In this document: positions 1 through 18,228 of the stretch, one piece after another
Layout: each line of letters starts with the position of its first letter
Numbering within the stretch: position 1 is the first letter of the stretch
Source: Caldilineaceae bacterium
GTDB taxonomy: Bacteria; Chloroflexota; Anaerolineae; Caldilineales; Caldilineaceae
NCBI GenBank assembly: GCA_965213535.1
Contig: OZ243888.1
Coordinates: forward strand, 1,105,876 to 1,169,875
Reading direction: 5' to 3'
DNA: 64,000 nucleotides
The notes under the pieces: model-generated
Told to the model about the DNA's origin: nothing
Seen by the model: the letters and a program-made list of their open reading frames with translations, nothing else
The model's database searches: none
Translations under genes and position numbers: made by a program

Positions 1-1
1 G

Positions 2-79
2 GGTGCGAAGACGACCGTGATGTATATCCACGTCATGAACAAAGGACCGCTTGGCATGCGAAGTCTGCTGGATCAGTAG
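2..79 (+). CDS. C-terminal end of a tyrosine recombinase (integron-integrase/XerC-like); 5' part lies outside the window
   Basis: Frame from nt 2 reads GAKTTVMYIHVMNKGPLGMRSLLDQ-stop. This resembles the box II end of tyrosine recombinases (TTMIYTHV..G..GVRSPLD, with the catalytic Tyr). Confidence 0.5.
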   Translation, partial: GAKTTVMYIHVMNKGPLGMRSLLDQ

Positions 80-172
80 CGGGTCAGCAGCCAATACTTG
101 CACTTGTGGCTTGTCATCTCCGGCCTGGCCCGTTGCTCGCAACTCTATTTGCCACATGTGAAACGATCCAAA

Positions 173-292
173 TCACTGCCCACTCACCTCGTTGATCAGC
201 GCCTTGGCCTCGCGCACGGCGACCTCCGCCGTGGCGTCGTCGTTGAGCACGCGCAGGATCACGTCGCTGACGTAGCTCCTGAAGTTGGCGTT
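173..292 (-). pseudogene. Remnant 3' end of a sugar-binding SBP gene (copy of the end of 1865-3190)
   Basis: Encodes ..[31 protein letters not shown]-stop. 184-292 aligns gap-free with 1876-1984 (95 of 109 identical, hand count). No SBP body lies upstream. Confidence 0.65.
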
Positions 293-342
293 ATTTTCGG
301 TTGCTGGCAATTTTGCTGGTTTTTGCTGCCGAGATAGGTAGG

Positions 343-1809
343 TCAATTGGGTGTTGTATATCTCTCGCACAAGGCGGCGCATACGGGCTGTTCTATGGGT
401 AGATTGGCAGCGAGCTGCCCCATCAACCCAGCCCCAAATGGTTCACAACTGCGTGCGGGCAATCGCTGCACGGATTCGCCCTGCTTGTTATTTTTGGCAA
501 TACTGCACAGACAGCCGTCGATGCTTAGGTGATTAACGAGCCCATCCCAGCAGAGCCACGCAGAGTTGGCCGCGGTTTGAGCGTCAACAAGGCCTAGTTC
601 ACGGAATTCCATCAGCGCCGTGGCAATACCGGCGGAGCCCGATGTATCGGGTGGCAGCGCTGGCTGATCAAAGAAATTCGGCCACAACCCGTGATCACCC
701 TGGTGCTTTATTACCCAAGCCGCCCGCTCACGCACGTGCTTGAGGAAATCAGGTGTGAAGTGATCAAGACCCGCCAGCCGGATACACTTCGAAATGCCGA
801 GAAGATACCACGCGATGCCGCGTGCCCAATTCGGGTAGCTGAGTTTCCCCTGCCGATTGCGCAGGTATATTGTTCCGTCTTTGAACAGCTTTTCATGGCG
901 GTCGTAGAGGATATTTGTCGCCCCGGCAAGCAGCGCTTCGTCCTCGCGGAGCACGGCGATTTGCGCTAGTGGATAGGCAGCGGTGTAGCAACCTTCACAA
1001 GAGAAATTGTCGTCCCGTACAGCTGTCAAAAATTGAAGAGCCATGTCCACAGAGGGGTGGCTTGAGTCTCGCCTTGCGATGGAGGCAAAGGGTAGCCCCG
1101 CTTCGATGGTGGAAAGGGTATCGACTAATACCTGGCCACGGGGGCCTTGAAAGCGCAGGTGCGTGTCGTCCAAAAATCGTCCCAGCCATTGTTCACGCGC
1201 ATTTGTCCAACGGCTGTTGACATCCCTTTGCGCCAGGGCATCAAATGCTTCCAAAACGCAGCCGCCCATCCAGCCAAATTGAGCCATGCTGCCGTGTTCG
1301 AGCCGTTGAAAAAAGCGGGTCAATCGATTCGCGTCGGCCATCTCCGGCCACAGAGATGGATACGCATCGGCTAACTCCTCGCGGTCTGCCAGAACCCAGA
1401 GTGGTTGATTGCCATCTAGCTGCTTAACGGAAACGCTGCTAATGCCAGCCGGAATTGGAACATGAAAACGCTGCGCATGGCTGGCGAAACCGTAGTCCAG
1501 TTCATGCCGCCAACCAGATTCGCTCGTCAGCAAGAGGCTACCCGCGTCCCGCTTATCAAAAGCCGACGCAAGCACTACCGTTCCTGTAACATCCAGCGCG
1601 TCAAACTGGAATATGGTTCCACTGATGAGCGGTACGCTGCAAAGGCCAGCAAGTGATTCCTGATCTGGCGGAGTAGACGGGGTGGCGTCGGGCGTCGTGA
1701 TTTGAACGAGGTTCTGCATATTCTCCAACTTCGGCCCCCACAAAATATCGTCCGGATAGGATACCGCATCTGCCTCTTGGCGGACCCTTTGTGTCGCTAC
1801 ACGCTCCAC
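343..1809 (-). CDS. Glycoside hydrolase, GH88/GH105-like (unsaturated glucuronyl/rhamnogalacturonyl hydrolase family)
   Basis: 488-aa ORF. The C-terminal half carries (alpha/alpha)6-type motifs NWARGIAWYLLG and PDTSGSAGIATAL. Visibly AT-richer than its neighbours. Confidence 0.5.
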   Translation of the reverse strand: MERVATQRVRQEADAVSYPDDILWGPKLENMQNLVQITTPDATPSTPPDQESLAGLCSVPLISGTIFQFDALDVTGTVVLASAFDKRDAGSLLLTSESGWRHELDYGFASHAQRFHVPIPAGISSVSVKQLDGNQPLWVLADREELADAYPSLWPEMADANRLTRFFQRLEHGSMAQFGWMGGCVLEAFDALAQRDVNSRWTNAREQWLGRFLDDTHLRFQGPRGQVLVDTLSTIEAGLPFASIARRDSSHPSVDMALQFLTAVRDDNFSCEGCYTAAYPLAQIAVLREDEALLAGATNILYDRHEKLFKDGTIYLRNRQGKLSYPNWARGIAWYLLGISKCIRLAGLDHFTPDFLKHVRERAAWVIKHQGDHGLWPNFFDQPALPPDTSGSAGIATALMEFRELGLVDAQTAANSAWLCWDGLVNHLSIDGCLCSIAKNNKQGESVQRLPARSCEPFGAGLMGQLAANLPIEQPVCAALCERYTTPN

Positions 1810-1864
1810 CGTTGTTCCCCACGCCTTGGTCGATCAACCTGTTTTATACCCAAGATAAATTGAG

Positions 1865-3190
1865 CTATCGACTGTTCACCTCGTTGATCAGCGCCTCGGC
1901 CTCGCGCACGGCGACTTCGGGCGTGGCGTCGTCGTTGAGCACGCGCAGCAGCATGTCGCCGGCGTAGGCCCAGAAGTCGGCGTCGGCTTCGAGGGCGGGC
2001 GGCATGGCTTGGGCGTTGGCGCTCTGCTGAAGGAAGCCGTTGAGAATGGCGTCGCCGCTGACTTCGGCCCGTTGGTGGGCGGGCAGCCGATTGGCGACCT
2101 CGGCAAGGAGCGCGCCCGCTTCCGCGCCCGTGGCAAATTGGGCAAAGCGCAGGGCCCGCGCCTGCTGATCGGGCGACGCGACGGCGCTGATAAAGAGGCC
2201 GTCGGCGCTGAGCCAGGGCTGGGCGGGGCCCGCCGGGCCAGCGGGCAGCGGGGCGACGGCGAGATCATCGCCCAGTGCGTCGCGCAGTTCCGCCGTGGCC
2301 CAGGGGCCGTCGACGAAGAAGGCGAACTCGCCCTTCTTGAAGCGATCCTTGAGCATCCCGTAGTCGATGTCGACGTAGCTGCCCTCGGTTTCGTTCAGCG
2401 CAGCCAGCCACGCCAGGAACTCCGCCGTTCCACCGTTCCCCGTCATCACCACTGCGCCGCCGGTGTCTATGAGCGTGCCGCCGTAAGCCGGAACCCCCCA
2501 GTAAACGTGGTAGAGACTGGCGTAGAGGCCCGTGCCCTGCTCGGCCGCTGTGCGCGCCTGAACCAGCCATTCGTCCATGGTCGACGGCGGCTCGACGTCC
2601 CCCAGCAGCGACTGATTGTAGAAGAGCGCCACGGTCTCCACGCTGAGCGGCAGGCCGTAGAGCGTGCCGCCCGCACTTAGATTATCGAGCGCGGCGGGGG
2701 CGTAATCGGCTAGCGCTTCTGCATCGACAAGCTCGCCGAGCGGCAGGAAGACATCAAGCGCGGCCAGGTCGTCGACCCACCAGTTGGGCGCGAGCAGCAG
2801 ATCGGGGCCACCACCCGCGGCCACGGCGTCGGCATAGGCCTGGGGCAAATCGTCGGGGGCGACGAAGAGCGTCTCGACCGTGAGATTGGGGTATTCGCGC
2901 CGGGCCGCGTCGAGGATGGCGGCGAGGGCGTCGCCGTCGGCCTGTGCCCAGGCGTGCCAGAGCACAAGCTCCCCGCTGGTGGCGTCGGCGGTGGGCGTGG
3001 GCGCAGCGGTGGGCAGCACGGGGTCGCGCACGGGGTCGCGGGCGACAGGCGTGCCGTCGGGCGCTGCGCTGGCCTCTGCGCTGGCCTCTGCCACGGGCGT
3101 TGGCGTCGGCTGGTTGCGACAGGCGACCAGCATTAGCCCGACAGCCAAAGCGAGTAGAACCGTTAAAGTCAACGAAACATTACGCATCAC
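1865..3190 (-). CDS. ABC transporter substrate-binding lipoprotein (family 1, sugar type)
   Basis: 441-aa ORF. Lipoprotein-like signal [12 protein letters not shown], Ala/Pro-rich linker, and an extracellular solute-binding family 1 pattern. Confidence 0.85.
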
Positions 3191-3227
3191 GTTTTATCTA
3201 TCACTTTCCAATTTTCAGTACGCGCCT

Positions 3228-3677
3228 TCACACATTATCTTCCAAACAACCCAGCAGCGCCCGCAATCCCAACTCGTAGCTCCGCCAGCCAAAGCCCGCA
3301 ATCTGCCCCACGCAGACCGGCGCGATCACCGATGTGTGGCGAAAAGCTTCGCGCTGGTGAATGTTGCTCAGGTGGACTTCGATCGTTGGCAGCGCGACGC
3401 CTGCAATCGCATCGCGCAGGGCGTAGGAGTAGTGGGTAAAGGCACCGGGGTTGATCACGATGCCGTCCGCCCAGTGGCGTGCCTCGTGGATGTGGTCGAG
3501 CAGCGCGCCTTCGTGGTTGCTCTGGAAGGGGTGCAGCGCGTGTTCGCCCGGCTGCTCGTCGAGCCACTTGATGAGCCGCTCGTTGACATCATCGAGCGTG
3601 AGCGCGCCGTAAACGTCCGGCTCGCGCGTGCCGAGCAGGTTGAGGTTGGGGCCGTGAATCAGGGCGATAGTGGACAC
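3228..3677 (-). CDS. aroQ: Type II 3-dehydroquinate dehydratase
   Basis: 149 aa. [22 protein letters not shown]-terminus and HLSNIHQRE motif, both typical of AroQ. Confidence 0.95.
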
Positions 3678-3698
3678 AGGTTGAAAAGTGAATAGTGG

Positions 3699-4280
3699 TT
3701 AGCGGTTGAAGTCAATGCGGGCGTAGATTTCGGCGAGCGGGAGGTCGCAGTCGAGGCTGTCGATGTGCGCGGTGGCGTCGGGGCCACGATGGGATTTGAG
3801 CAGCCAAACGTTGTCGCCTTCGCGGGCGTAATGCTCAATGCGCGCTTCGTCTTGCGAGACGATGAGATAGTCGGTAAGAGACTCAATGTCGCGGTAGAGA
3901 TCGAGCTTGGGGCCGCGATCGTAGTCGCTGGTGGAGGGCGAGAGAATTTCGACGAGCAGCGTTGGGTTGAGCAGCGTGTCGAATTGGTCGTCGAGAAATT
4001 TCGCCTCATCTCCCACAATCACGATATCGGGATAAACACACGCTTTCCCATTCTGAATCCATATGCGCATCTGACTGACCAGCACATCGTAATCCGGCAG
4101 TTGTCTACCGAACAATACGATGAGTTCGGTAGTAATCAAATTGTGGTACAAGCTCGATGGCGGCGCTTCACGCGCTTCTCCGCCAATGTACTCGCTCTTG
4201 CGTTCCTGCGCCCGTTCGGGGTCGCGCTCCCACGCCAGATATTCTTCGGGCGTCATGCGGAGTTCAAGGACGGTCGCCAT
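3699..4280 (-). CDS. Uma2 (DUF820) restriction-endonuclease-like protein
   Basis: 193 aa. EYLAWE..KSEYIGGE, PDIVIV and EILSPS motifs characteristic of the Uma2 family. Confidence 0.75.
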   Translation of the reverse strand: MATVLELRMTPEEYLAWERDPERAQERKSEYIGGEAREAPPSSLYHNLITTELIVLFGRQLPDYDVLVSQMRIWIQNGKACVYPDIVIVGDEAKFLDDQFDTLLNPTLLVEILSPSTSDYDRGPKLDLYRDIESLTDYLIVSQDEARIEHYAREGDNVWLLKSHRGPDATAHIDSLDCDLPLAEIYARIDFNR

Positions 4281-4289
4281 AATCTTTCT

Positions 4290-5945
4290 CTACTCCAACA
4301 CCTGCGACAGCGCGTCGCGCACAAAACTTTCGCCCGGATTGTCAATCACCACCACGTCGCCCACATCTTGCGCGATGAGGAAGCGCAGGGTTTTGCCCCG
4401 GCGCTTTTTGTCGTGCCACATGGCCTGCATCACCTCATCAATATTTAGGTCGAGGTCGTAGCCGCCCACGCAGGTCGGCAGGCCCATTCGGTCGACCACG
4501 TTGCGCGTGCGCTCGACGAGCGACGCGTCGCAGCGGCCAATTGCGTGGGCCATGTGCGCGGCAGCGACCAGCCCCAGCGCGACGCCCTCGCCGTGGCGTA
4601 CTCGGTAGCCGCTGACGTGCTCGATGGCATGGCCAAAGGTGTGGCCGAGATTGAGCGTGGCGCGCCGCCCCTGCTCAAACGGGTCTTCTTCGACCACCTC
4701 GACCTTGACGCGCACGGCGTCGGCGACGAGGTGGGCCATGCAAGTGGGGCCGTACTCTTCGAGCTGGGCAAACAAATCGGGCGCGCCGATCAGCCCGTGC
4801 TTGATGATTTCGGCCAGCCCGGCGCGAAATTCAGCGCTCGGCAAGGTCGATAGCGTGGCCGTGTCGATGATAACGACTTCGGGCTGCTTAAAGGCGCCGA
4901 CGAGATTCTTGCCCTGCGGCAGGTCGACGCCCGTTTTGCCGCCCACCGAGGCGTCGACCATCGAGAGCAGCGAGGTCGGCATCTGTACGTAGGGCACGCC
5001 GCGCAGAAAGCTGGCCGCGGCAAAGCCCGCCATGTCGCCGACGACGCCGCCGCCCAGCGAGAGGACGGCGCTGCTCCGATCCAATCCCGCGTCTAGAAAT
5101 TGGTCGTAGAGCGAGGCGACGGTCGCCAGCGTTTTGTGCTGCTCGCCCTCGGGCACGAGGCAGAGCGTGGGCTCATAGCCCGCGCTGCGCAGCGAGTCGA
5201 GCAGAATTTCGCCGTGGTGCGCGGCGACCTCTTGGTTGCTGACAACGGCCACCGTGCCCGGCCGCAAATCACGCGCGCGCAGCAGGTCGCCCGCGTGGGC
5301 CAGCAGCCCCTCGCCCAGGCAGATGTCGTAGGAGCCCGCTGGGTGCTGGACGGGAATGCGCGTCATGCCGCGGACTTCCGCATCGCCAGCGACCACGTCT
5401 AGAATTCGCTCGACGATCTGCTCCGGCGTGCGGCCCGTGGTGTCGACCTGGTGCGGGATGGCGGCGTAGGCCTGGCGGCGCTCGTGGAGCAGGTCGCGCA
5501 CGCGCTGCTGGCGCTCGGCCAGCGTACCGTCCAGCAGCGGGCGATCGGCAAATTGTTCGAGCCGGCGCAGAATTTCGTCGATGCTGGCGGTGAGGCAGAT
5601 CAGCACGCCGGACTGCGCCAGCTCGTGGCGGCTGCTCGGGTTCACCAGCGCGCCGCCGCCGGTGGCGATCACGAGCGACTGCTGCTGAGCCAGCTGCTGG
5701 CAGAGGCGAATTTCGGCCAGCCGAAAGGCCGGCTCGCCCTCCTCGGCAAAGACAGCGGCGATGGGTTTGCCAAAGTGCGCTTCGAGCTGCGCGTCCATGT
5801 CGACAAAATCACGCCCTAGCCGCTGGGCGAGCCGCTGGCCAATGGTGCTCTTGCCCGTGCCCATAAAGCCGGTGAGGACGATGTTTTGGGTAGAGAAATT
5901 AGGTTTTAATAAATTAGAAACTGAGTGGTTCTTGTGCATCGTCAT
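4290..5945 (-). CDS. aroK-aroB: Bifunctional shikimate kinase / 3-dehydroquinate synthase
   Basis: 551 aa. N-terminal Walker A GFMGTGKSTIG (AroK) is fused to the AroB core GGGVVGDMAGFAAASFLRGVPYVQMPTSLLSMVDASVGGKTG. Confidence 0.92.
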   Translation of the reverse strand: MTMHKNHSVSNLLKPNFSTQNIVLTGFMGTGKSTIGQRLAQRLGRDFVDMDAQLEAHFGKPIAAVFAEEGEPAFRLAEIRLCQQLAQQQSLVIATGGGALVNPSSRHELAQSGVLICLTASIDEILRRLEQFADRPLLDGTLAERQQRVRDLLHERRQAYAAIPHQVDTTGRTPEQIVERILDVVAGDAEVRGMTRIPVQHPAGSYDICLGEGLLAHAGDLLRARDLRPGTVAVVSNQEVAAHHGEILLDSLRSAGYEPTLCLVPEGEQHKTLATVASLYDQFLDAGLDRSSAVLSLGGGVVGDMAGFAAASFLRGVPYVQMPTSLLSMVDASVGGKTGVDLPQGKNLVGAFKQPEVVIIDTATLSTLPSAEFRAGLAEIIKHGLIGAPDLFAQLEEYGPTCMAHLVADAVRVKVEVVEEDPFEQGRRATLNLGHTFGHAIEHVSGYRVRHGEGVALGLVAAAHMAHAIGRCDASLVERTRNVVDRMGLPTCVGGYDLDLNIDEVMQAMWHDKKRRGKTLRFLIAQDVGDVVVIDNPGESFVRDALSQVLE

Positions 5946-8889: not shown

Positions 8890-11800
8890 ATGATTTTGCG
8901 CCTGCTTCCAAGTGCTCGACTGCTTCACATTGCCATTGCTTGCCTATTTATTACCCAAGCTGCTTTCGCACCGCTCGACGCGCTCGCGCGCACGCAGCCA
9001 ACTGCCTCCGGTTTTCCCCGACAGCAGGAGCCGCCGGTCGATGCGCCGGTCGATGCGCCGATCGATGCACCCGTCCACAATTCCGTAGACGAGCTGCCCC
9101 CGAAAGTGCCCGGCGCCGGCGAGCCAGTGGCTGCACCGGAGACCGAGCCCTCGCCCGAAATTCCCGACCCCCTGGTTCCCGTCGAATTGAGCCTCTCTAC
9201 CGATGACGATTTGCTGCGCCCCAGCAAAGTGGTGCGCTTTGAAGTAAAGCTCTGGCGCTACGCCGATGCAACGTCTGACTTGACCGTGCGCGTCCAACTT
9301 CCCGAACAGCTGGAGATGGACGAGAATGAACCGCTGACGTGGACGCTGCCCGCTAGCGTGGGCGAGCAGCCGGAAATTGTGCGCGAGTTCAAGGTTAAGT
9401 GGCGCAACAAGCTGACGGATACGTCGGGCGCGGTAGTGGGGATTGGCGTCCAGGTGGAGGGCGCGGGTTACAGCGCCGTTGAGCAGCGCCTGTCGCTGGG
9501 CAGCACCGAGACGAGCGTTGAAGAAGCGGAAAGTATCGTCGGCACGCCGGAAGCCGTGCAGGACGCCAACGGCCTGGTGCTGGAAGGCACGGGCGGCGAC
9601 GTGATCGTGCTGGCCGAGCCGGATGCGGTGGAAGCGGGCACGGTCTTTCGCTACACGGATTTATGGCGGGCCGATGGGGCGAGCGAAGCAGTCGTCGTTC
9701 CCGTTGAGGTTGTGCCTGCTCAGGAGGTGGCCGAGCCGGTGGACGACCCGCAGCCGGTCGAGGCGGCCGCTCAAGCCGACGCGTCTACTTTCCTGCCGCT
9801 GGTAGGGACGGGCGCGGCGGGCGACGGGGGCGTGCAGGCGGCGGTGAGCGAGCCCAGTGCAGAGCAAAAGATTGAGCCACAGTGGGTAGATGATGTGCTG
9901 GTGTACCACACGTGGCAGCTGGACGCCATTCCGCCTGGGCAGACAGCGGGGGGCGAGCACGTTCAATTCAAAAAGAAGGTCAAGCTTCAGGTTAATGTGC
10001 AGTGGCTGCTGGAGGCAGGCGTCGACCCCAGCACGCTGGATTTGTGGACGCGCCCGGACGAGTCGCAGCCGTGGGAGCGGGTGGAGACGCAGTACAACGA
10101 AAAGCAGAATGTGCTTACGGCCAAAGTAGATCACTTTAGCGAATGGGGGCTGGGCGGCGGAATTACCGCGCGCCGCGAGGTGCTGCCCAGCGTTTCGCAC
10201 TTGAGCAGCGACCTGCAGACGGGCGCGGCGATGGCGAGCGTTCCGATTGAAGCGCCGGCGGGTTTGGGCGGGATGTCGCCGGGGTTGAGCCTCAACTACT
10301 CCAGCGGTACGGTCGATGATATTGATTTAGATAATGATGAGAATAACTACAAGGCACAGGCGGGCACGGCGGGGTTGGGCTGGGGATTGGGCGGCATCAG
10401 CTATATTGCGCTCACCGATTACAGCGTCCGCACCGGTTTTGAGGGACACGGATATCAGCTTGTTTTGAATGGTGCCAGCACACAACTGCGTGGGAATCAG
10501 GCCTATCCCGAAACGTTTGCCAAGATTCAGAAGAATCTAGCCCATGAGCTTCCGGACAACAATAAAGGCAAAATCTACTTTTCTGGCGAGTGGATCATCA
10601 CCACGCCGGACGGCACCAAGCACTACTTTGGCTCCACCGAAGACCCCCGCACACTGGACGGCAATCAGCGACTGAATGGATTTAAGTATCAAAGCTTGAT
10701 TGCTGGCGTGAACTATTGGGTGGTGACCAAATGGTATCTGCGCAAATCTGTAGACCCGCTGGGCAACCAGATCAACTACAACTACGCCTGGGACATGGGG
10801 CGGATTGGGGAAGACCCAAATCCAACAGATCAGGACCATGTTCCTCCCTGCTCCAACGGTGGAATTGCTCCCGGTGGCGGTCTCTTTGGCCGACAAAGCT
10901 ATCACCGCGATGTGCGGCTGCAGGAAGTGCTGTGGAGCAGCAACGCGACTTATGATGGCAACAGCCGCATGCGCGTATTGCTGGACTACCAGCCGCGCGA
11001 TGATTACGAGATCGAAGGCTGGGAAAGCAAGGATTGCAAGCAAGTTTTGTACAGCACGCAGCGGCTTAAGAACGTGCGCGTGCAGGTGAAGGATACGAGC
11101 AATACATGGCAGCTGCTGCGACAGTACGATTTGGGGTATCGCTACTCATGGGGAATCTCATGCAGTAGATCCTTTGACTGCTTTCATTCGCTGTTGGAAA
11201 CCATCACGGAGCGCGGAATGGATGGGGGCGCGCTCAACACGCAGCGCTTCGACTACAATCGCAACGGCACGGATCACGGCCAAATTCACCTGGATCACGT
11301 CGAGAACGGCTGGGGCGGCACGGTGGAGTATGGCTACCAACAAGTCTCCATGAGACGTTGCCAGTTAAATAGTGATTACACGATCAAGTCCAGTTGCTCC
11401 AGCAACGTTTTGAAGCGCTGGAAGGTTTCAAGCATAGCGGTTTACGACGGATTGGGTAACCGGTCCGAACGAGCCTACAGCTACACGGGCGCGCTGGAAA
11501 TCGACCGCGGGGGCGTCGACCACTACCTGGGGCACAGCTATGCCAAGGTAACCTACCGCACGCTCAACAGCTCGAGCAGCGTGCAGAAGGTGGAAGAGAC
11601 GTGGTTCTACCAGGGCAATATCGGCAGCACGGTGGGCCAAAGCGGCAAGCCCGATCCGCGGGTGGGACGCACGCAGTGGTTCAAAGTGCATCGGCCCAAG
11701 GGCAGCGGCTGCTCGACGGCACAGCCGGAGCAGCTGACGGGCTACTGCCGCATGTCGCAGACGAACACAGAGTGGACGGCGTGGCGCAAAGACGGCAGCA

Positions 11801-14800
11801 GCTGGGTTTCGACCAGCGACTACGCCGCGCGCCCGCTGTGGGTGCGGCAGGAGAGCGAAGTGGTAACGACGGACGGCGCGGCGGATGAGCGCTACTTCTA
11901 TTACGAGACCAGCCGCCAGAACAATCAGCAGTTTGGCAACGTGACCAAAATTGAGGAGGGGGGCAGCGCCGGCAGCCGGCTGCGCGCCACGACGGTTGAA
12001 TTCTTCCCCAATGTGGGTGCGTACATCGTGGGCCTGCCCGCGCGCACGCGCATTTACGGCAGCGGCGGCGACTGCTACGCGGAGAGCCGCACCATTTACG
12101 GGCGCGGCAACTACGCTGGCAACTACAACACGCAGCCGGGCTCGGGGCTGGTGGCTAAAACGGAGCAGGCGCTGACGGGCTGCTCGGACACAGCCGCCAT
12201 TGGCACTTACGACGGCAACTGGGCAACTACGCACTTTGATTACGACGTGTACGGCAACGTCATCACCGAGCACAGCCTCGGCACGGACAGCGACCGCAAC
12301 CTCATGATCAAGACGGTCTACGATGGGACTTATCACCTCTTCCCCGTGGAGCAGTATAACGAGCACCGCCCGGAGTTCAAGGAGACGGCCAAATACTGGG
12401 GCGTCAATCTGGGGGGCTGGACGGATGACCGCCTCTTTTGGGGCGCCATGGGCGAACACTGCGGCGTCAACGGAGCCTGCACGCGCCAGGCCTACGACGA
12501 GTTCGGCCGCGCGACCTACCAGTGGGCTCGCATTCCGACGGGCACGTCGTGGAGCGACGCCATCAACGCCAGCGCCCAGGCCAACACGCGCTGGGTCTAC
12601 ACGATGCACGGCCAAAGCGGCTCCAACCGCAACGTGATCACCGAATGGCATTCGCCGCGCTGCACCGGCAATTTCGTGCGCCACCACTACAACGGCATCG
12701 GCCAACTCGTGCAGGAGCAGACGCCCGACCAGGATTGGACGGGCAATACCGATGGCTGCAATCCCGGCAACAACTATAAAGAAATTGACGTCAGCTACCA
12801 GTATGATGCGCTGGGCCACCAGACGCGCGCCTCGGTGCCCAGCCGCACGAGCGCGGGCTGGGTGAATCGCGCGTTGAGTTGGAGCGCGGGCTATACGAGC
12901 ACGAGCTATGATGTGCTGGGCCGGCCCGTGCAGACCGTGGCGCCCAATGGGGAAACCACAAAATACAGCTACAGCGGACGCATTTCGCAGGCCGTTGCCT
13001 ATGGCGATAGCACGCGGAAGAGCCTCTCGTGGCAAGATTATGATGAATTGGGTCGCCTTCAAGCCGTCCGCGACTACAGCTACCGCAGCAGCGACAACAA
13101 GTGGCTGTATGGGGGTGTGCAGGTGTCACTCTCCTACGACAAGCTGGACAACCTGACGCGCGTCGACCACATTGAAGGTGGCTCTACCACCATGACCTAC
13201 GACGCCGCCGGGCGCAAACGGAGCATGAACGACCCGGATCTCGGCGCGTGGAGCTATCTCTACGACCGTCAAGGTCACCTCGTGCGCCAGACCGACGCGC
13301 GCGGCAAGTCGACCTGTCTTTTCTATGAAGCGCGCACGGGGCGGTTGGAAGGCAAGTTTTTGCGAGATGCCACCACCTGTCCCTCGACCCAAAGTTCTTA
13401 CCACATCGAATACAGCTACGACAGCGGCCACTCCGCCAGCAACCGCAGCCGTGGGCAGCTGACGCGCGTGCGCAAGCGCAACAGCATTCAGTCCAGCACT
13501 TACTACTATGACAAGCAACTGACCTACGACGGCCGTGGACGGCTGGCGAGCGAATCGGTGGCGATTGAAGGCGCAGCGACGACGACGACGCAGCACGTCT
13601 ACGATCCCTATCACCGTCCTTACGTGTTCGTCTACCCAGACGGCAGCATGGCCAAGACCTTCTTTAACAGCCTGGGGCTGCCCAGCCAGCTTTGCGAGGC
13701 GTATTTGGACAGCGGTGAATACCGCTGCCGATCTGGCAAGACGATTGTGGACGATGTGCGCTACAATGAAGCCGGTCAATTGGAGCGGATGCGGATGCCC
13801 GCGGGTGGCAACCTTTACCGCCACCAGCTCTACCACACGTGGACCGGCACGTCCGGCAACGGCAGCACGGGCAACGGTAATCGACGGTTGGCCGAAACTC
13901 GCGTGGGCACGAGCAGCGATCTCAACAACAGCGCCTCACACAATCGCCTGCGACTGCGCTACTGGTACGATGGCTACGGCAACGTGGCCAGCGCCCACGA
14001 GCAGTACAGCGGCGGCGGCACGGGGCAGTACACCTTTGCCTACGATGCCCAAAATCGCCTGACCAACGGCTACGGTCAGAGCTTTGCCTACCACATCGAC
14101 GGGCGCTTTACGCGCTTCGAGGGCGTGGACCGCACGCTCTCCAACAATTTCCCGCTGCACGCCACCTACAAGACGGCCAGCTTTGCCTACGACGCCAACG
14201 GCAACATGACGGCGCGGCCCAACCTGAACATGGAGTGGGACTACGAGAACCACCTGGCGCGCGCTTACGGCGGCGGCCTCGACGAGCGCTACCTCTACGA
14301 CGCCGACGGCCAGCGCGTGCGCAAGCAGGGCAGCGGCTACAGCGTCTACTACCCCTTTCCCCACTACGAGACGTCGACGGGCAGCGTGGTCACGGCGGCG
14401 CAGGCGCCGGGCGATCTGGCCCAGCAGATGCTGGACGAGGAGCCGGCGGATGGCGTAGACTGGGAGGCGGCGCAGGCCGAGACGCCAGCCGCTGAAACCT
14501 TGACGAGCCGCGTGCATCTGCCGCTGGTGGGCAACGGCGGCGCAAGCGACGCGGTGGGCGCGGCGGCGGTGCAGGCGGTGAGCACGACGCGCTACTACTT
14601 CTTCAACGGCCAGCCCGTGGCCATGTGGAAGGACGGCGCGCTGAGCTACCTGCACGCCAACCACCTGGGAAGCGTGGTCGAGACGACCGACGCCAGCGGC
14701 AACCCCACGGCGGGCTATAGCTACTACGGCTACGGGCGCAAGCGCAGCGGGCAGACCTTGCCGACCGACCACCGCTTCACCGGCCAAAAGCTGGACGGCA

Positions 14801-15588
14801 CGGGGTTGTACTACTACAACGCCCGCTACTACGACCCGGCGCTGGGCCAGTTTGTGTCGCCGGATACGCTTGTGCCGGATGCGAGTCGGGTGCTTGCGTA
14901 CAATCGGTACATGTACTCGGTCGGGAATCCGCTCAGATACAATGATCCCACTGGACACGTTTACGAAGATTCAGGGGATGGGGGCGGTGAGCTTACAGCG
15001 CTGATCCAGTTGCGGAGCTGTGGCGGCAGCGTCATGTGTGAAACCACGAATGTTGGTCAGTGGTTGCGCAAGCATCCGGAGTACGATCCGTTTGTCGACC
15101 CCAATTACGGTCAGCACGAGGGGTACGCCACCGTGCTGCTTATGCTAACGCAAATCAATCTTGACGACGGCAATCAAGAGCTGGCTTGGACCTACTTCTA
15201 CGCGCTGCACGAGAATACAGCCGCTCAAGCACCCGTTGACGCTGGGCTGTCACTGCCAGAAACGGCGGCTACTTTAGCTTCGGCTGGAATGTTTGGCCCC
15301 TTCTTTCGCCTAAAATCTCCAACCCAGACATTCGATGTCGCCAAGTTGCAAGAGGAGTCAGGCGAAATCTGGGGTAGGACTCCACGCAATGGTCACACTC
15401 CCACCGTTCAGGCGTATAATGGGCCTCTGCCAGAAGGAGTAGAAGGCATTGAATTCTACACAGATGTTGCGCCTAACTCTGGCCAACCACCAAGCCGTTC
15501 TAATTGGTCAGGCCCCCGATCCGGAGTACGTGTCGAAGGGGAATATGCAAAAATATGTTGTGTTGTCACACAGAATACACAGAGGTGA
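8890..15588 (+). CDS. rhs: Rhs/YD-repeat polymorphic toxin with signal-peptide-like N-terminus and variable C-terminal toxin tip
   Basis: 2232 aa. SpvB/TcB-like GGMSPGLSLNYSSG..GLGWGLGG segment, many YD repeats (YDALGHQT, YDVLGRPV, YDAAGRKR...). Core end is YYYNARYYDPALGQFVSPDTLVPD..GNPLRYNDPTGH, followed by an AT-richer tip. Confidence 0.95.
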   Translation: MILRLLPSARLLHIAIACLFITQAAFAPLDALARTQPTASGFPRQQEPPVDAPVDAPIDAPVHNSVDELPPKVPGAGEPVAAPETEPSPEIPDPLVPVELSLSTDDDLLRPSKVVRFEVKLWRYADATSDLTVRVQLPEQLEMDENEPLTWTLPASVGEQPEIVREFKVKWRNKLTDTSGAVVGIGVQVEGAGYSAVEQRLSLGSTETSVEEAESIVGTPEAVQDANGLVLEGTGGDVIVLAEPDAVEAGTVFRYTDLWRADGASEAVVVPVEVVPAQEVAEPVDDPQPVEAAAQADASTFLPLVGTGAAGDGGVQAAVSEPSAEQKIEPQWVDDVLVYHTWQLDAIPPGQTAGGEHVQFKKKVKLQVNVQWLLEAGVDPSTLDLWTRPDESQPWERVETQYNEKQNVLTAKVDHFSEWGLGGGITARREVLPSVSHLSSDLQTGAAMASVPIEAPAGLGGMSPGLSLNYSSGTVDDIDLDNDENNYKAQAGTAGLGWGLGGISYIALTDYSVRTGFEGHGYQLVLNGASTQLRGNQAYPETFAKIQKNLAHELPDNNKGKIYFSGEWIITTPDGTKHYFGSTEDPRTLDGNQRLNGFKYQSLIAGVNYWVVTKWYLRKSVDPLGNQINYNYAWDMGRIGEDPNPTDQDHVPPCSNGGIAPGGGLFGRQSYHRDVRLQEVLWSSNATYDGNSRMRVLLDYQPRDDYEIEGWESKDCKQVLYSTQRLKNVRVQVKDTSNTWQLLRQYDLGYRYSWGISCSRSFDCFHSLLETITERGMDGGALNTQRFDYNRNGTDHGQIHLDHVENGWGGTVEYGYQQVSMRRCQLNSDYTIKSSCSSNVLKRWKVSSIAVYDGLGNRSERAYSYTGALEIDRGGVDHYLGHSYAKVTYRTLNSSSSVQKVEETWFYQGNIGSTVGQSGKPDPRVGRTQWFKVHRPKGSGCSTAQPEQLTGYCRMSQTNTEWTAWRKDGSSWVSTSDYAARPLWVRQESEVVTTDGAADERYFYYETSRQNNQQFGNVTKIEEGGSAGSRLRATTVEFFPNVGAYIVGLPARTRIYGSGGDCYAESRTIYGRGNYAGNYNTQPGSGLVAKTEQALTGCSDTAAIGTYDGNWATTHFDYDVYGNVITEHSLGTDSDRNLMIKTVYDGTYHLFPVEQYNEHRPEFKETAKYWGVNLGGWTDDRLFWGAMGEHCGVNGACTRQAYDEFGRATYQWARIPTGTSWSDAINASAQANTRWVYTMHGQSGSNRNVITEWHSPRCTGNFVRHHYNGIGQLVQEQTPDQDWTGNTDGCNPGNNYKEIDVSYQYDALGHQTRASVPSRTSAGWVNRALSWSAGYTSTSYDVLGRPVQTVAPNGETTKYSYSGRISQAVAYGDSTRKSLSWQDYDELGRLQAVRDYSYRSSDNKWLYGGVQVSLSYDKLDNLTRVDHIEGGSTTMTYDAAGRKRSMNDPDLGAWSYLYDRQGHLVRQTDARGKSTCLFYEARTGRLEGKFLRDATTCPSTQSSYHIEYSYDSGHSASNRSRGQLTRVRKRNSIQSSTYYYDKQLTYDGRGRLASESVAIEGAATTTTQHVYDPYHRPYVFVYPDGSMAKTFFNSLGLPSQLCEAYLDSGEYRCRSGKTIVDDVRYNEAGQLERMRMPAGGNLYRHQLYHTWTGTSGNGSTGNGNRRLAETRVGTSSDLNNSASHNRLRLRYWYDGYGNVASAHEQYSGGGTGQYTFAYDAQNRLTNGYGQSFAYHIDGRFTRFEGVDRTLSNNFPLHATYKTASFAYDANGNMTARPNLNMEWDYENHLARAYGGGLDERYLYDADGQRVRKQGSGYSVYYPFPHYETSTGSVVTAAQAPGDLAQQMLDEEPADGVDWEAAQAETPAAETLTSRVHLPLVGNGGASDAVGAAAVQAVSTTRYYFFNGQPVAMWKDGALSYLHANHLGSVVETTDASGNPTAGYSYYGYGRKRSGQTLPTDHRFTGQKLDGTGLYYYNARYYDPALGQFVSPDTLVPDASRVLAYNRYMYSVGNPLRYNDPTGHVYEDSGDGGGELTALIQLRSCGGSVMCETTNVGQWLRKHPEYDPFVDPNYGQHEGYATVLLMLTQINLDDGNQELAWTYFYALHENTAAQAPVDAGLSLPETAATLASAGMFGPFFRLKSPTQTFDVAKLQEESGEIWGRTPRNGHTPTVQAYNGPLPEGVEGIEFYTDVAPNSGQPPSRSNWSGPRSGVRVEGEYAKICCVVTQNTQR

Positions 15589-15980: not shown

Positions 15981-16322
15981 GTGACCGCTGGGACTAGGCT
16001 AGATAGCGTTGCGTCCTGCTGCTCACCCATACCAACAAACGAAGTGAATGCGGCAGCGGAACAAGCCATAGACGTGACCCGCTACTACTTCTTCACCGGC
16101 CAGCCCGTGGCGATGAAGAAGGACACGGTGCTAGAAACCGACAGCAGGGGCAACGTGACGGTAGACGAAAAGTATTGGGCTTATAACAAACAGTGCGTCG
16201 AGTTTCATCAAATTGGCCGCCAAACTCAAAATGGTAGGCCAATCGCTCACGAACGATATGCTATCGAGGATATTCAGGCGGCAACGGGTACTAAGGTTAC
16301 GTTCTACCCTGATAATCGGTAA
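15981..16322 (+). pseudogene. Orphan Rhs fragment 1 (partial core, no DPxGH cleavage motif)
   Basis: AAEQAIDVTRYYFFTGQPVAMKKD..LETDSRGN matches main-gene 14560-14700. It then diverges without the YYYNARYYDP..DPTGH end. Confidence 0.5.
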
Positions 16323-16331
16323 GGGCATAAC

Positions 16332-16826
16332 ATGGGCAAGCAAGTCAATTTTTATGCCAACAACGACGATCTTCGTGAAGTGCAAGCTAAGTTAGAAGCT
16401 GAAGATGTCGTGTTTGTGGAGTCAAGATTCCCCAAGCAACAAATTGAGACAGTTGGTACGCTTCTTGTTCCTGTAATGGAAGAATCAGCACTCAGACTCA
16501 ACTTGATGAGAGGGCAAGATTTCCCATTGGTTCAATTCAACAAGAGGCAAGACTTCTTTGAGATAGACACCCTGCGCTCACCCGTCATTGAGTTTGATAG
16601 GTGCTATTACAACGACAGGCTGATGCGCAGGGGACGAGCCTTTTTTGAGACCGGGTTTTATGACAGCGCCGGGGATTGGACAAGTAAGCCCACTGATTTC
16701 AACCAATGGGGTGACCAATTCTTACGGTGGCTTCGTCGCTATTTCATAAGAGACGAAGCCACGAAGTTCTACATGGGTCCGCTTACGCAGGAGTGGGTAG
16801 CCGCTGAGAAAATTGCACTTGTCTGA
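16332..16826 (+). CDS. Hypothetical protein (possible partner of orphan 1)
   Basis: 164-aa ORF 10 nt after orphan 1. AT-rich, with no recognisable domain. Confidence 0.4.
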   Translation: MGKQVNFYANNDDLREVQAKLEAEDVVFVESRFPKQQIETVGTLLVPVMEESALRLNLMRGQDFPLVQFNKRQDFFEIDTLRSPVIEFDRCYYNDRLMRRGRAFFETGFYDSAGDWTSKPTDFNQWGDQFLRWLRRYFIRDEATKFYMGPLTQEWVAAEKIALV

Positions 16827-16852
16827 TGGAGCAGCACAACGAACTCCAACAA

Positions 16853-17840
16853 CACTACTTCTTTGGTAGCCGGAGGTGACAAAAAAGCGGTGCAGCAGCT
16901 TCTACATACACCCCGACCACCTGGGCAGCATGATGCTGGAGACGGACGACAGCGGCAACCGCCACGCCCCCAAAGCTACTTTGCCTTTGTCGCCAGACGC
17001 GGCGGCACGGCGTTGACGCCCGCCACCGAAAACCAGTTCACCGGCCAAAAGCTGGACGGCACGGGCCTGTACTACGACAACGCCCGCTACTACGACCCGG
17101 CGCTGGGCCAGTTCGTGTCGCCGGATACGCTTGTACCGGATGCGAGCCGGGTGGGGGATTATAATCGGTATTTGTATGCGCGCGGGAATCCCCTGCGGTA
17201 TAATGATCCGAGTGGGCACACACCAGGCGGGCCGCAGATTGATGGCGGCATCTGCGTTGTGATGGGGTGCAATGTTGACCAATGGAGCAGTCGAGACCAG
17301 ATGGAAGTATCTGCTCCGACGCGTCAGCAGATTCACGTTGCTCTCGATACCACCGGGTTTGTCGATCCAACACCGCTATCCGATGGAACTAATGCAATCC
17401 TTTACGCGTCTTAAAGAAAATGGACAGATGTTGGTCTGTCGCTTCTCGGACTCGTGTTCCTTGACCTTCTGAAAGGCGCACGCTATGCCGATGAGGCTGT
17501 AGAGATCGTCCAAGGCGCTGATAACTTCGCCGACGAAATCCCACTCTTTCGAGCTGTTAGCCCTGATGAGCTTTCAGATATCGAAGCTACAGGCGCATTC
17601 AGAAATCCTCCTGGCATCGAGAAAAAATATTTCTCAACCACTGAAGACGGTGCTCGACAATATGCTAGAATGGCAGAAGAAGCATTCGATGATCCTGCTT
17701 ATGCTTTCGTCAGTACAAGCATTCGCCGCAACGGCATTGAAGCGGATTTGTTAGCCGAAGTAGACATGGGCATCTCCACAGTTTTAGTGCCCACAGCTCA
17801 GTTGGATGAGCTAGCTACGCCCATTATCCTCGGTGATTAA
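16853..17840 (+). pseudogene. Orphan Rhs module 2: degraded core + PT-TG-like linker + unknown toxin tip
   Basis: Core is spread over three frames: HYFFG, then DHLGSMMLETDDSGNRHAP, then SYFAFVARRGG..YDNARYYDPALGQFVSPD..NDPSGH. An in-frame TAA at 17412-17414 splits the LDTTGFVDP..NAILYAS / RKWTDVGLSLLGL linker. Confidence 0.65.
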
Positions 17841-17872
17841 ACGTCAAGCTGCTGGGCAAGAAGGGAAATAAA

Positions 17873-18172
17873 ATGTCACCTGATGTTATGGCTAAGTTGA
17901 GCCTCTACCCAACGGAATTGAATGGACGTGAATCCCCCACGCCAAGCTCTAGGTTTTCGTTCATTATCGACTTGAACGATAATTTTCACGACGCGCGGGC
18001 CTACCTTGAAGGGTGCGGCTCAATCTCGCCAGGGCAGCAGGCGGAAGTTCCAATCAAGTTCCTTGATCCGGATACTGTTTTGCCCAAACTACAAGTGGGC
18101 GATCAAATTCCCATTTGGGAGGGAAGAGAAATAGGTCAACTCCAGATAATCCAAATTCCTTCCAGGAATTGA
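17873..18172 (+). CDS. Small partner ORF of orphan 2, EF-Tu domain III-like by motif pattern
   Basis: 99 aa. NGRESPTPSSRFSFII, SPGQQAEVPIKFLDP and IWEGREIGQLQII parallel EF-Tu GGRHTPFFKGYRPQFYF, MPGDNIKMVVTLIHP and IREGGRTVGAGVV. Confidence 0.45.
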   Translation: MSPDVMAKLSLYPTELNGRESPTPSSRFSFIIDLNDNFHDARAYLEGCGSISPGQQAEVPIKFLDPDTVLPKLQVGDQIPIWEGREIGQLQIIQIPSRN

Positions 18173-18184
18173 TAGGTTGTCGGC

Positions 18185-18228
18185 AAACGCTCGCAGCAAG
18201 ATTGATTGCTGCGAGCGTTTGATTTAGT
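18185..18228 (+). terminator. Hairpin terminator after orphan-2 partner ORF
   Basis: Perfect 15-bp stem AAACGCTCGCAGCAA / TTGCTGCGAGCGTTT with a 6-nt loop, followed by GATTTAGTT. Confidence 0.55.

Follow-up and report, generated by a model that had tools for sequence, protein, structure and literature searches.

What is the function of a small gene that follows an interrupted Rhs toxin tip and whose product resembles one domain of the elongation factor EF-Tu? This question is raised by a 99-amino-acid (aa) open reading frame (ORF) at positions 17873-18172 of a 64,000-nucleotide (nt) stretch of contig OZ243888.1 from a Caldilineaceae bacterium (Chloroflexota), which we call the window. The ORF lies directly downstream of a toxin remnant, orphan 2, in a series of orphan cassettes behind a large Rhs gene (Table 1). 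Its product, hereafter the D3-like protein, is a diverged free-standing copy of bacterial EF-Tu domain III (D3), and the likeness goes far beyond chance. We consider it likely that orphan 2 ends in a new toxin domain, that the ORF encodes the cognate immunity protein for this domain, and that the protein descended from EF-Tu D3.

The ORF list returns the gene and its translation as they were given in a preliminary description of the window. On its own, the 99-aa protein has no match in Pfam, NCBIfam or PDB at E<=10 and none in PHROGs or PADLOC. It fails the gathering cut-off (27 bits) of PF03143, the Pfam family of EF-Tu D3, and the only genes that PF03143 detects across the genome are the two tuf genes. 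A word-indexed homologue search with the window protein yielded a 99% identical copy as its only match, and a search of the genome contigs with the same single sequence found no related loci. Single-sequence searches were insufficient, and the family was recovered by an exhaustive phmmer search. At a threshold of E<=1e-3 this gave 328 cluster representatives, almost all of them ~100 aa long. A 122-sequence alignment of the family (A1) was used for the profile, for hhalign and for AlphaFold2 (AF2) modelling.

The A1 profile matches EF-Tu alone in the PDB, at residues ~300-394 and with a best E value of 4e-8; the top 59 matches are all EF-Tu, and the first protein other than EF-Tu appears at E 0.34. 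When A1 is aligned by hhalign with nine EF-Tu D3 sequences of the same phylum, the probability is 98% and the E value 2.5e-13 over 89 columns. Individually, 32 of the 122 members match PF03143 at E<=1 (best 4e-7). The A1 profile also recovers the tuf genes in 269 of the 401 genomes, all of one phylum, that make up our survey sample. Identity to EF-Tu D3 is ~15-26%, and a single BLASTP comparison of the window protein with the EF-Tu D3 of its own genome gives 26% over 92 aa (E 8e-4).

The AF2 model built from A1 (predicted local distance difference test score, pLDDT, 96.7; predicted template modelling score, pTM, 0.86) supersedes an earlier single-sequence model of poor quality (pLDDT 64). It forms a barrel of six strands with one short helix (residues 66-72). 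A Foldseek search of the PDB with this model returns EF-Tu for all of the top 50 matches, with TMq values of 0.75-0.80 and root-mean-square deviations of mostly 1.5-2.5 Å, and the superposition on EF-Tu D3 is at ~1.7 Å. The preliminary description had taken the protein for a stand-alone EF-Tu domain III on the strength of three motif pairs, and had named a profile or structure comparison as the way to check it. The family profile against the PDB, hhalign and the model with Foldseek all agree with that identification, and none of these comparisons came back without a significant match. The alignments recover the same three pairs, which are, with the D3-like sequence given before that of EF-Tu, NGRESPTP/GGRHTPF, SPGQQAEVPIKFLDP/MPGDNVNMRVELISP and VGDQIPIWEG-REIGQLQI/QGSRFAIREGGRTVGAGVI.

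Two large proteins, P0002 (1813 aa) and P0060 (2212 aa), were considered as homologues and rejected, as they are repeat proteins with 10-15 partial matches confined to query residues 38-73. Their repeat unit resembles DVRAYVEGRGNLSESQQEQIRLIL, and the similarity is probably due to chance or low complexity.

The consensus of A1 reads PDI.A...L..T..GGR..PTP...F.C.........DCRL.L...G...PG....VPI.FL.P......L..G..F.LWEGR.IG.G.V. Compared with EF-Tu D3 (PF03143; residues ~300-393 of Escherichia coli TufA), the D3-like protein carries the GGR, PG and EG-R-x-[VI]G-x-G motifs in the same order. The GGR loop is kept, with G18 present in 99% and R19 in 95% of the members, and so are the PG turn (P53 and G54) and the EG-R-x-[IV]G-x-G hairpin. 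R19 aligns with R318 of E. coli EF-Tu. Opposite H319 the window protein has E20, at a position that is not conserved in the family. Both R318 and H319 of EF-Tu contact the T-loop of tRNA (PMC9071432).

The D3-like protein differs from EF-Tu in several respects. It consists of 99 residues without a G domain or domain II, and a toxin tip precedes it; its gene sits in a toxin cassette and not in a translation operon. A four-residue insertion forms the short helix in the model. The Arg of the EF-Tu IREGGR motif is aligned with a Trp, the residue aligned with T382 is variable, and the FL-x-P and D-C-R motifs are specific to the D3-like family. Two Cys residues, conserved in most members (81% and 66%), lie on neighbouring strands; the corresponding residues 30 and 41 of the window protein are Phe and Ala. 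Fusions to other small domains occur in several members. The fusion partners and neighbours that could be assigned are only domains of unknown function (DUF7079, DUF6794 and DUF6928), which give no functional hint.

The domain that precedes the D3-like gene is defined by the motif L[FY]RAV-x3-E-x2-DI-x3-G-x-[FY]R ... K[YF]F[ST]T ... VD-x-G. In the window, orphan 2 is split by a single in-frame TAA (17412-17414), and the frame is otherwise unbroken from 16863 to 17840; comparisons of the tip were based on the uninterrupted pieces of the broken tip together with natural intact homologues. Homologues of the tip were found in L044, G131, G199, G261, G272 and P0197. A D3-like ORF lies directly downstream of a tip homologue in five other loci, four of which are clear and one weak. 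On a metagenome contig (L044), the end of the toxin ORF is followed after a 4-nt gap by a 101-aa D3-like ORF. G131 (L012/L051) contains an Rhs orphan tip that is likewise interrupted, and then a 101-aa D3-like ORF. In G199 (L049), the C-terminal end of a YD-repeat protein of at least 607 aa overlaps the D3-like ORF, and G261 (L052) shows the same arrangement. The weak case is G272 (L050), where the ORF behind a variant tip scores 9.7 bits against the D3-like profile over positions 32-98. Viewed from the toxin side, the association with a D3-like ORF thus holds in five to six of six cases.

In the survey sample, the tip domain occurs in ~5 of the genomes, with one further marginal match in G120 (E 0.007), and stand-alone D3-like ORFs also occur in ~5, four of which adjoin a toxin whereas the fifth, in G231, is an orphan. 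This orphan ORF of 111 aa (L013; G231:C1:4894152-4894433) is located beside a transposase fragment of the insertion sequence (IS) type and a 102-aa acidic ORF, with no toxin in view.

An uninterrupted form of the orphan-2 cassette is found on a metagenome contig (L058; European Nucleotide Archive ERZ25070591) with ~95% nucleotide identity to the window. Here an unbroken Rhs C-terminal end of at least 380 aa is followed by the D3-like gene. The tip is identical to the window tip in amino acid sequence, with two synonymous changes in 426 nt, and the D3-like genes differ at 2 of 300 nt (one synonymous change and one N99S substitution). Since L058 carries an uninterrupted tip, an intact toxin exists in close relatives, and the stop in the present genome is recent. 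The order of cassettes in L058 (positions 1-4478) is unlike that of the window: an orphan-3-like module comes after the D3-like gene, and a match to window positions 16200-17150 lies further on. This difference in order suggests that the array was rearranged recently between close relatives.

Because the same tip domain precedes D3-like copies in several genomes, we assign the D3-like protein a probable immunity role. The preliminary description had already paired the ORF with orphan 2; this pairing stands, given the position typical of an immunity gene and the fixed downstream association of the family with this tip domain in other genomes. By analogy with the immunity proteins of other polymorphic toxins, the D3-like protein would most likely bind the ~100-aa tip domain 1:1 in the cytoplasm of the producer and block its activity. 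Some family members that lack a toxin nearby occur in arrays of small genes on the same strand; the rest stand alone or have mobile-element genes in their vicinity. Two of these contexts resemble polyimmunity arrays, namely L005, whose small same-strand genes include Imm1, and the similar L042. Cognate pairs mixed with many orphan copies, small-gene arrays and fusions are typically the habit of immunity genes.

Several observations weigh against the immunity assignment. In roughly two thirds of the family contexts that were examined, no recognisable toxin lies nearby, so a toxin-independent role is possible for part of the family. At positions 17, 30 and 41, which are G, C and C in most members, the window protein has N, F and A. 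The toxin that would have to be neutralised is non-functional in this genome, owing to its in-frame stop and orphan position, and we infer the binding of the tip from gene order only. The immunity gene itself is intact, with its own Shine-Dalgarno-like ribosome-binding site and a terminator-like hairpin. As the tip is dead and the immunity gene is not, the protein probably protects against the same toxin from relatives that have an uninterrupted copy, and the gene would have been kept as protection against toxin delivered by them.

The contexts without a toxin also bear on an explanation in which the D3-like protein has no part in immunity: it would act on translation by binding tRNA, EF-Ts or EF-Tu, or would help or activate the toxin, and would merely travel with the cassette. 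Besides the many members without a visible toxin, the alignment of R19 with the tRNA-contacting R318 is consistent with this explanation, as is the finding that some toxins require EF-Tu as a cofactor (PMC9071432). We nevertheless regard it as very improbable. A location directly 3' of the toxin and an occurrence in small-gene arrays are what immunity genes typically show, and the toxin-side association is close to invariable. With a net charge of -5 the window protein is acidic, and the family scatters around -1, which appears ill-suited to RNA binding, although net charge is uninformative for distinguishing RNA from protein binding, as its values span -6 to +6 among immunity proteins and -10 to +7 among toxin domains.

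With an immunity role preferred, the second question is why an immunity protein should be built on EF-Tu D3, and the answer depends on what the tip does. The tip domain has no match in Pfam, NCBIfam, PHROGs or PADLOC, and tip profiles built from 3 or 7 sequences find no PDB chain at E<=10, TreTu included. At the level of motifs, the tip has an R-x5-E spacing (LFRAVSPDE) in which the E is invariant; the R is present in six of seven sequences, and the remaining one has H. The variant tip of L050 (G272:C67, 453-1073, minus strand) contains LIHTAV and KYFYPT where the other tips contain L[FY]RAV and KYFSTT. This exchange of Arg and Ser for His and Tyr recalls the R-S-E and H-Y-E classes of ADP-ribosyltransferases, in one sequence and at the motif level.

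A known family with some resemblance to the tip is Tox-ART-HYD1 (PF15633), which is paired with Imm-My6CBD and is likewise an Rhs-borne toxin domain of ~100 aa, with the signature H,[RK],[FY],[DE] (Zhang et al., 2012; PMC3482391). The orphan-2 tip has [RH], R, F and [DE] in a similar order. In contrast, its immunity partner belongs to a different family, and the assignment of the tip to Tox-ART-HYD1 was rejected on the available evidence, as hmmscan gives no match and hhalign against members from this phylum gives a probability of 0.5%. A PF15633 scan of the genome finds no match in the window and one at another locus (L054; G000:C1:5139603-5139905). The latter is a genuine Tox-ART-HYD1 domain in a 111-aa open frame (87 bits) and is unrelated to the orphan-2 tip.

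The resemblance of the D3-like protein to EF-Tu is open to two explanations within an immunity role. In the first, the tip docks on or modifies EF-Tu D3, and a captured copy of this domain serves as the immunity protein, outcompeting EF-Tu for the recognition surface or the active site of the toxin. Such mimicry refines the immunity assignment rather than excluding it. We regard it as possible but rather doubtful. The family derives specifically from bacterial EF-Tu D3, with no other translation GTPase above E 0.3. Moreover, the Arg of the GGR loop that aligns with R318 and the (R/W)EG-R-x-[IV]G hairpin are both kept. These conserved motifs are, however, turns built from Gly and Pro, and the needs of folding alone may explain why they persist; two positions of the hairpin region, the Trp in place of the IREGGR Arg and the variable residue aligned with T382, depart from EF-Tu.

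Doc is a Fic-type toxin that phosphorylates Thr382 of EF-Tu in domain III, and Doc and Phd form a type II toxin-antitoxin pair. The modified residue lies in the D3 hairpin GGRTVGAG. Doc thus shows that this hairpin can be the target of a toxin, which speaks for mimicry, and the same hairpin is kept in the D3-like family. The comparison goes no further, as Phd is an unrelated antitoxin and nothing marks the orphan-2 tip as a Fic kinase.

Among toxins delivered between bacteria, EF-Tu is a recurrent partner or target, in systems based on Rhs proteins, contact-dependent inhibition (CDI) and type VI secretion (PMC9825190; PMC9071432; bioRxiv 10.1101/2025.10.28.685041; bioRxiv 10.64898/2026.05.10.723254), which is in line with mimicry. 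The closest parallel is TreTu-TriTu from the main Rhs protein of Salmonella Typhimurium (PMC9825190; PDB 7ZHL/7ZHM), where a small Rhs C-terminal toxin is likewise followed by a small immunity gene and EF-Tu is involved. TreTu is a mini-ADP-ribosyltransferase that modifies EF-Tu, for which docking on helix D of the G domain was modelled and which modifies D21 of the P-loop (PMC9825190). The R-x5-E spacing of the tip resembles that of R6 and E12 in TreTu, a likeness at the motif level only that also counts in favour of mimicry. Against mimicry, the tip shares no sequence match with TreTu or with any other PDB chain, or with Tox-ART-HYD1. TriTu, the immunity protein of an EF-Tu-modifying toxin, bears no likeness to EF-Tu; it consists of two helices and a flat sheet of five strands, in contrast to the D3 barrel of the window protein.

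The CDI toxins of strains EC869 and NC101 (PMC9071432; PDB 7VMC and 5I4Q) provide a second parallel, as they too are toxins of the contact-delivered type with a cognate immunity gene directly downstream. These CdiA-CT toxins are tRNases of the BECR fold whose action depends on binding to EF-Tu, and they contact its domain II (PMC9071432). TreTu (PMC9825190) and Serratia Rhs2 (bioRxiv 10.1101/2025.10.28.685041) contact the G domain. The EF-Tu-binding toxins in the cited papers therefore use domain II or the G domain and not D3, so a domain III decoy would be without precedent, which neither raises nor lowers its likelihood. The CdiI proteins of EC869 and NC101 mask the catalytic site of the toxin, and the immunity proteins of these EF-Tu-exploiting toxins are not described as EF-Tu-like, unlike the protein studied here.

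In the second explanation, the D3 barrel was recruited merely as a stable small binding fold that occludes the active site of the toxin, and the target of the toxin is unrelated to EF-Tu. We rate this at slightly below an even chance. Immunity proteins use many unrelated folds (Zhang et al., 2012; PMC3482391), and TriTu is a plain β-sheet lid. The low identity of the D3-like protein to EF-Tu D3 points in the same direction, as does the fact that family-specific features (FL-x-P, DCR and the extra helix) dominate the conserved positions. A general scaffold would leave unexplained both why this particular housekeeping domain was captured and why the D3 loop motifs still rank with the best-conserved positions in the family. 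A more specific form of the mimicry proposal, which we put forward tentatively and hold to be unlikely on balance, is that the ~100-aa tip is an interbacterial toxin of a new class, which may be a minimal ADP-ribosyltransferase and recognises or modifies EF-Tu through domain III, and that a duplicated D3 was captured beside it and became a tight-binding decoy.

The surroundings of the gene follow the familiar layout of an Rhs array. The large Rhs gene is followed on its 3' side by a string of orphan cassettes, and several of the orphans have the Rhs-associated core (TIGR03696) in common with it. The D3-like gene starts 32 nt past the stop codon of the tip, on the same strand. A GTG at 17454, beyond the TAA, could in principle start a free toxin-domain protein of 128 aa (17454-17840); no Shine-Dalgarno-like motif precedes it. 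If this frame were translated, the tip and the D3-like gene would act like a toxin-antitoxin module.

Table 1. Features of the orphan-2 cassette and of the Rhs gene that heads its array (window positions).
Feature	Position	Strand	Basis or remark
Main Rhs toxin gene with YD repeats (2232 aa), first in the array of orphan tips and immunity genes	8890..15588	+	ORF list; signal-like N-terminus
Orphan-2 Rhs core remnant with DPSGH motif and linker	16863..17414	+	TIGR03696 Rhs_assc_core, E 7.8e-19; ends at the in-frame TAA
Remainder of the orphan-2 tip: hydrophobic linker and ~100-aa unannotated toxin domain	17415..17840 (domain 17526-17837)	+	Translation past the stop
Shine-Dalgarno-like GAAGGGA, 6 nt 5' of the ATG of the D3-like gene	17860..17866	+	Read from the sequence
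D3-like gene, 99 aa; stand-alone EF-Tu domain III homologue, putative immunity protein	17873..18172	+	Homology, fold and toxin pairing
Intrinsic-terminator-like hairpin, 16-bp stem with 9 GC pairs and T-rich tail; closes the cassette	18184..18221	+	

Full-text literature searches found no description of an immunity protein that resembles EF-Tu D3, and the 2012 census of polymorphic toxins never mentions EF-Tu. The logic of the Rhs cassette is already familiar; what is new is the D3-like immunity family and the toxin domain with which it is paired. If the likeness to EF-Tu is only ancestral, the outcome is nonetheless a new immunity family, with at least 328 sequence clusters, and a new toxin domain of ~100 aa that is distributed on Rhs and other carriers. 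Were the likeness functional, the D3-like family would clearly exemplify immunity through mimicry of the target or partner of a toxin. It would then predict that the unannotated toxin domain targets EF-Tu by way of domain III, and the folds of immunity proteins could serve to infer the targets of toxins.
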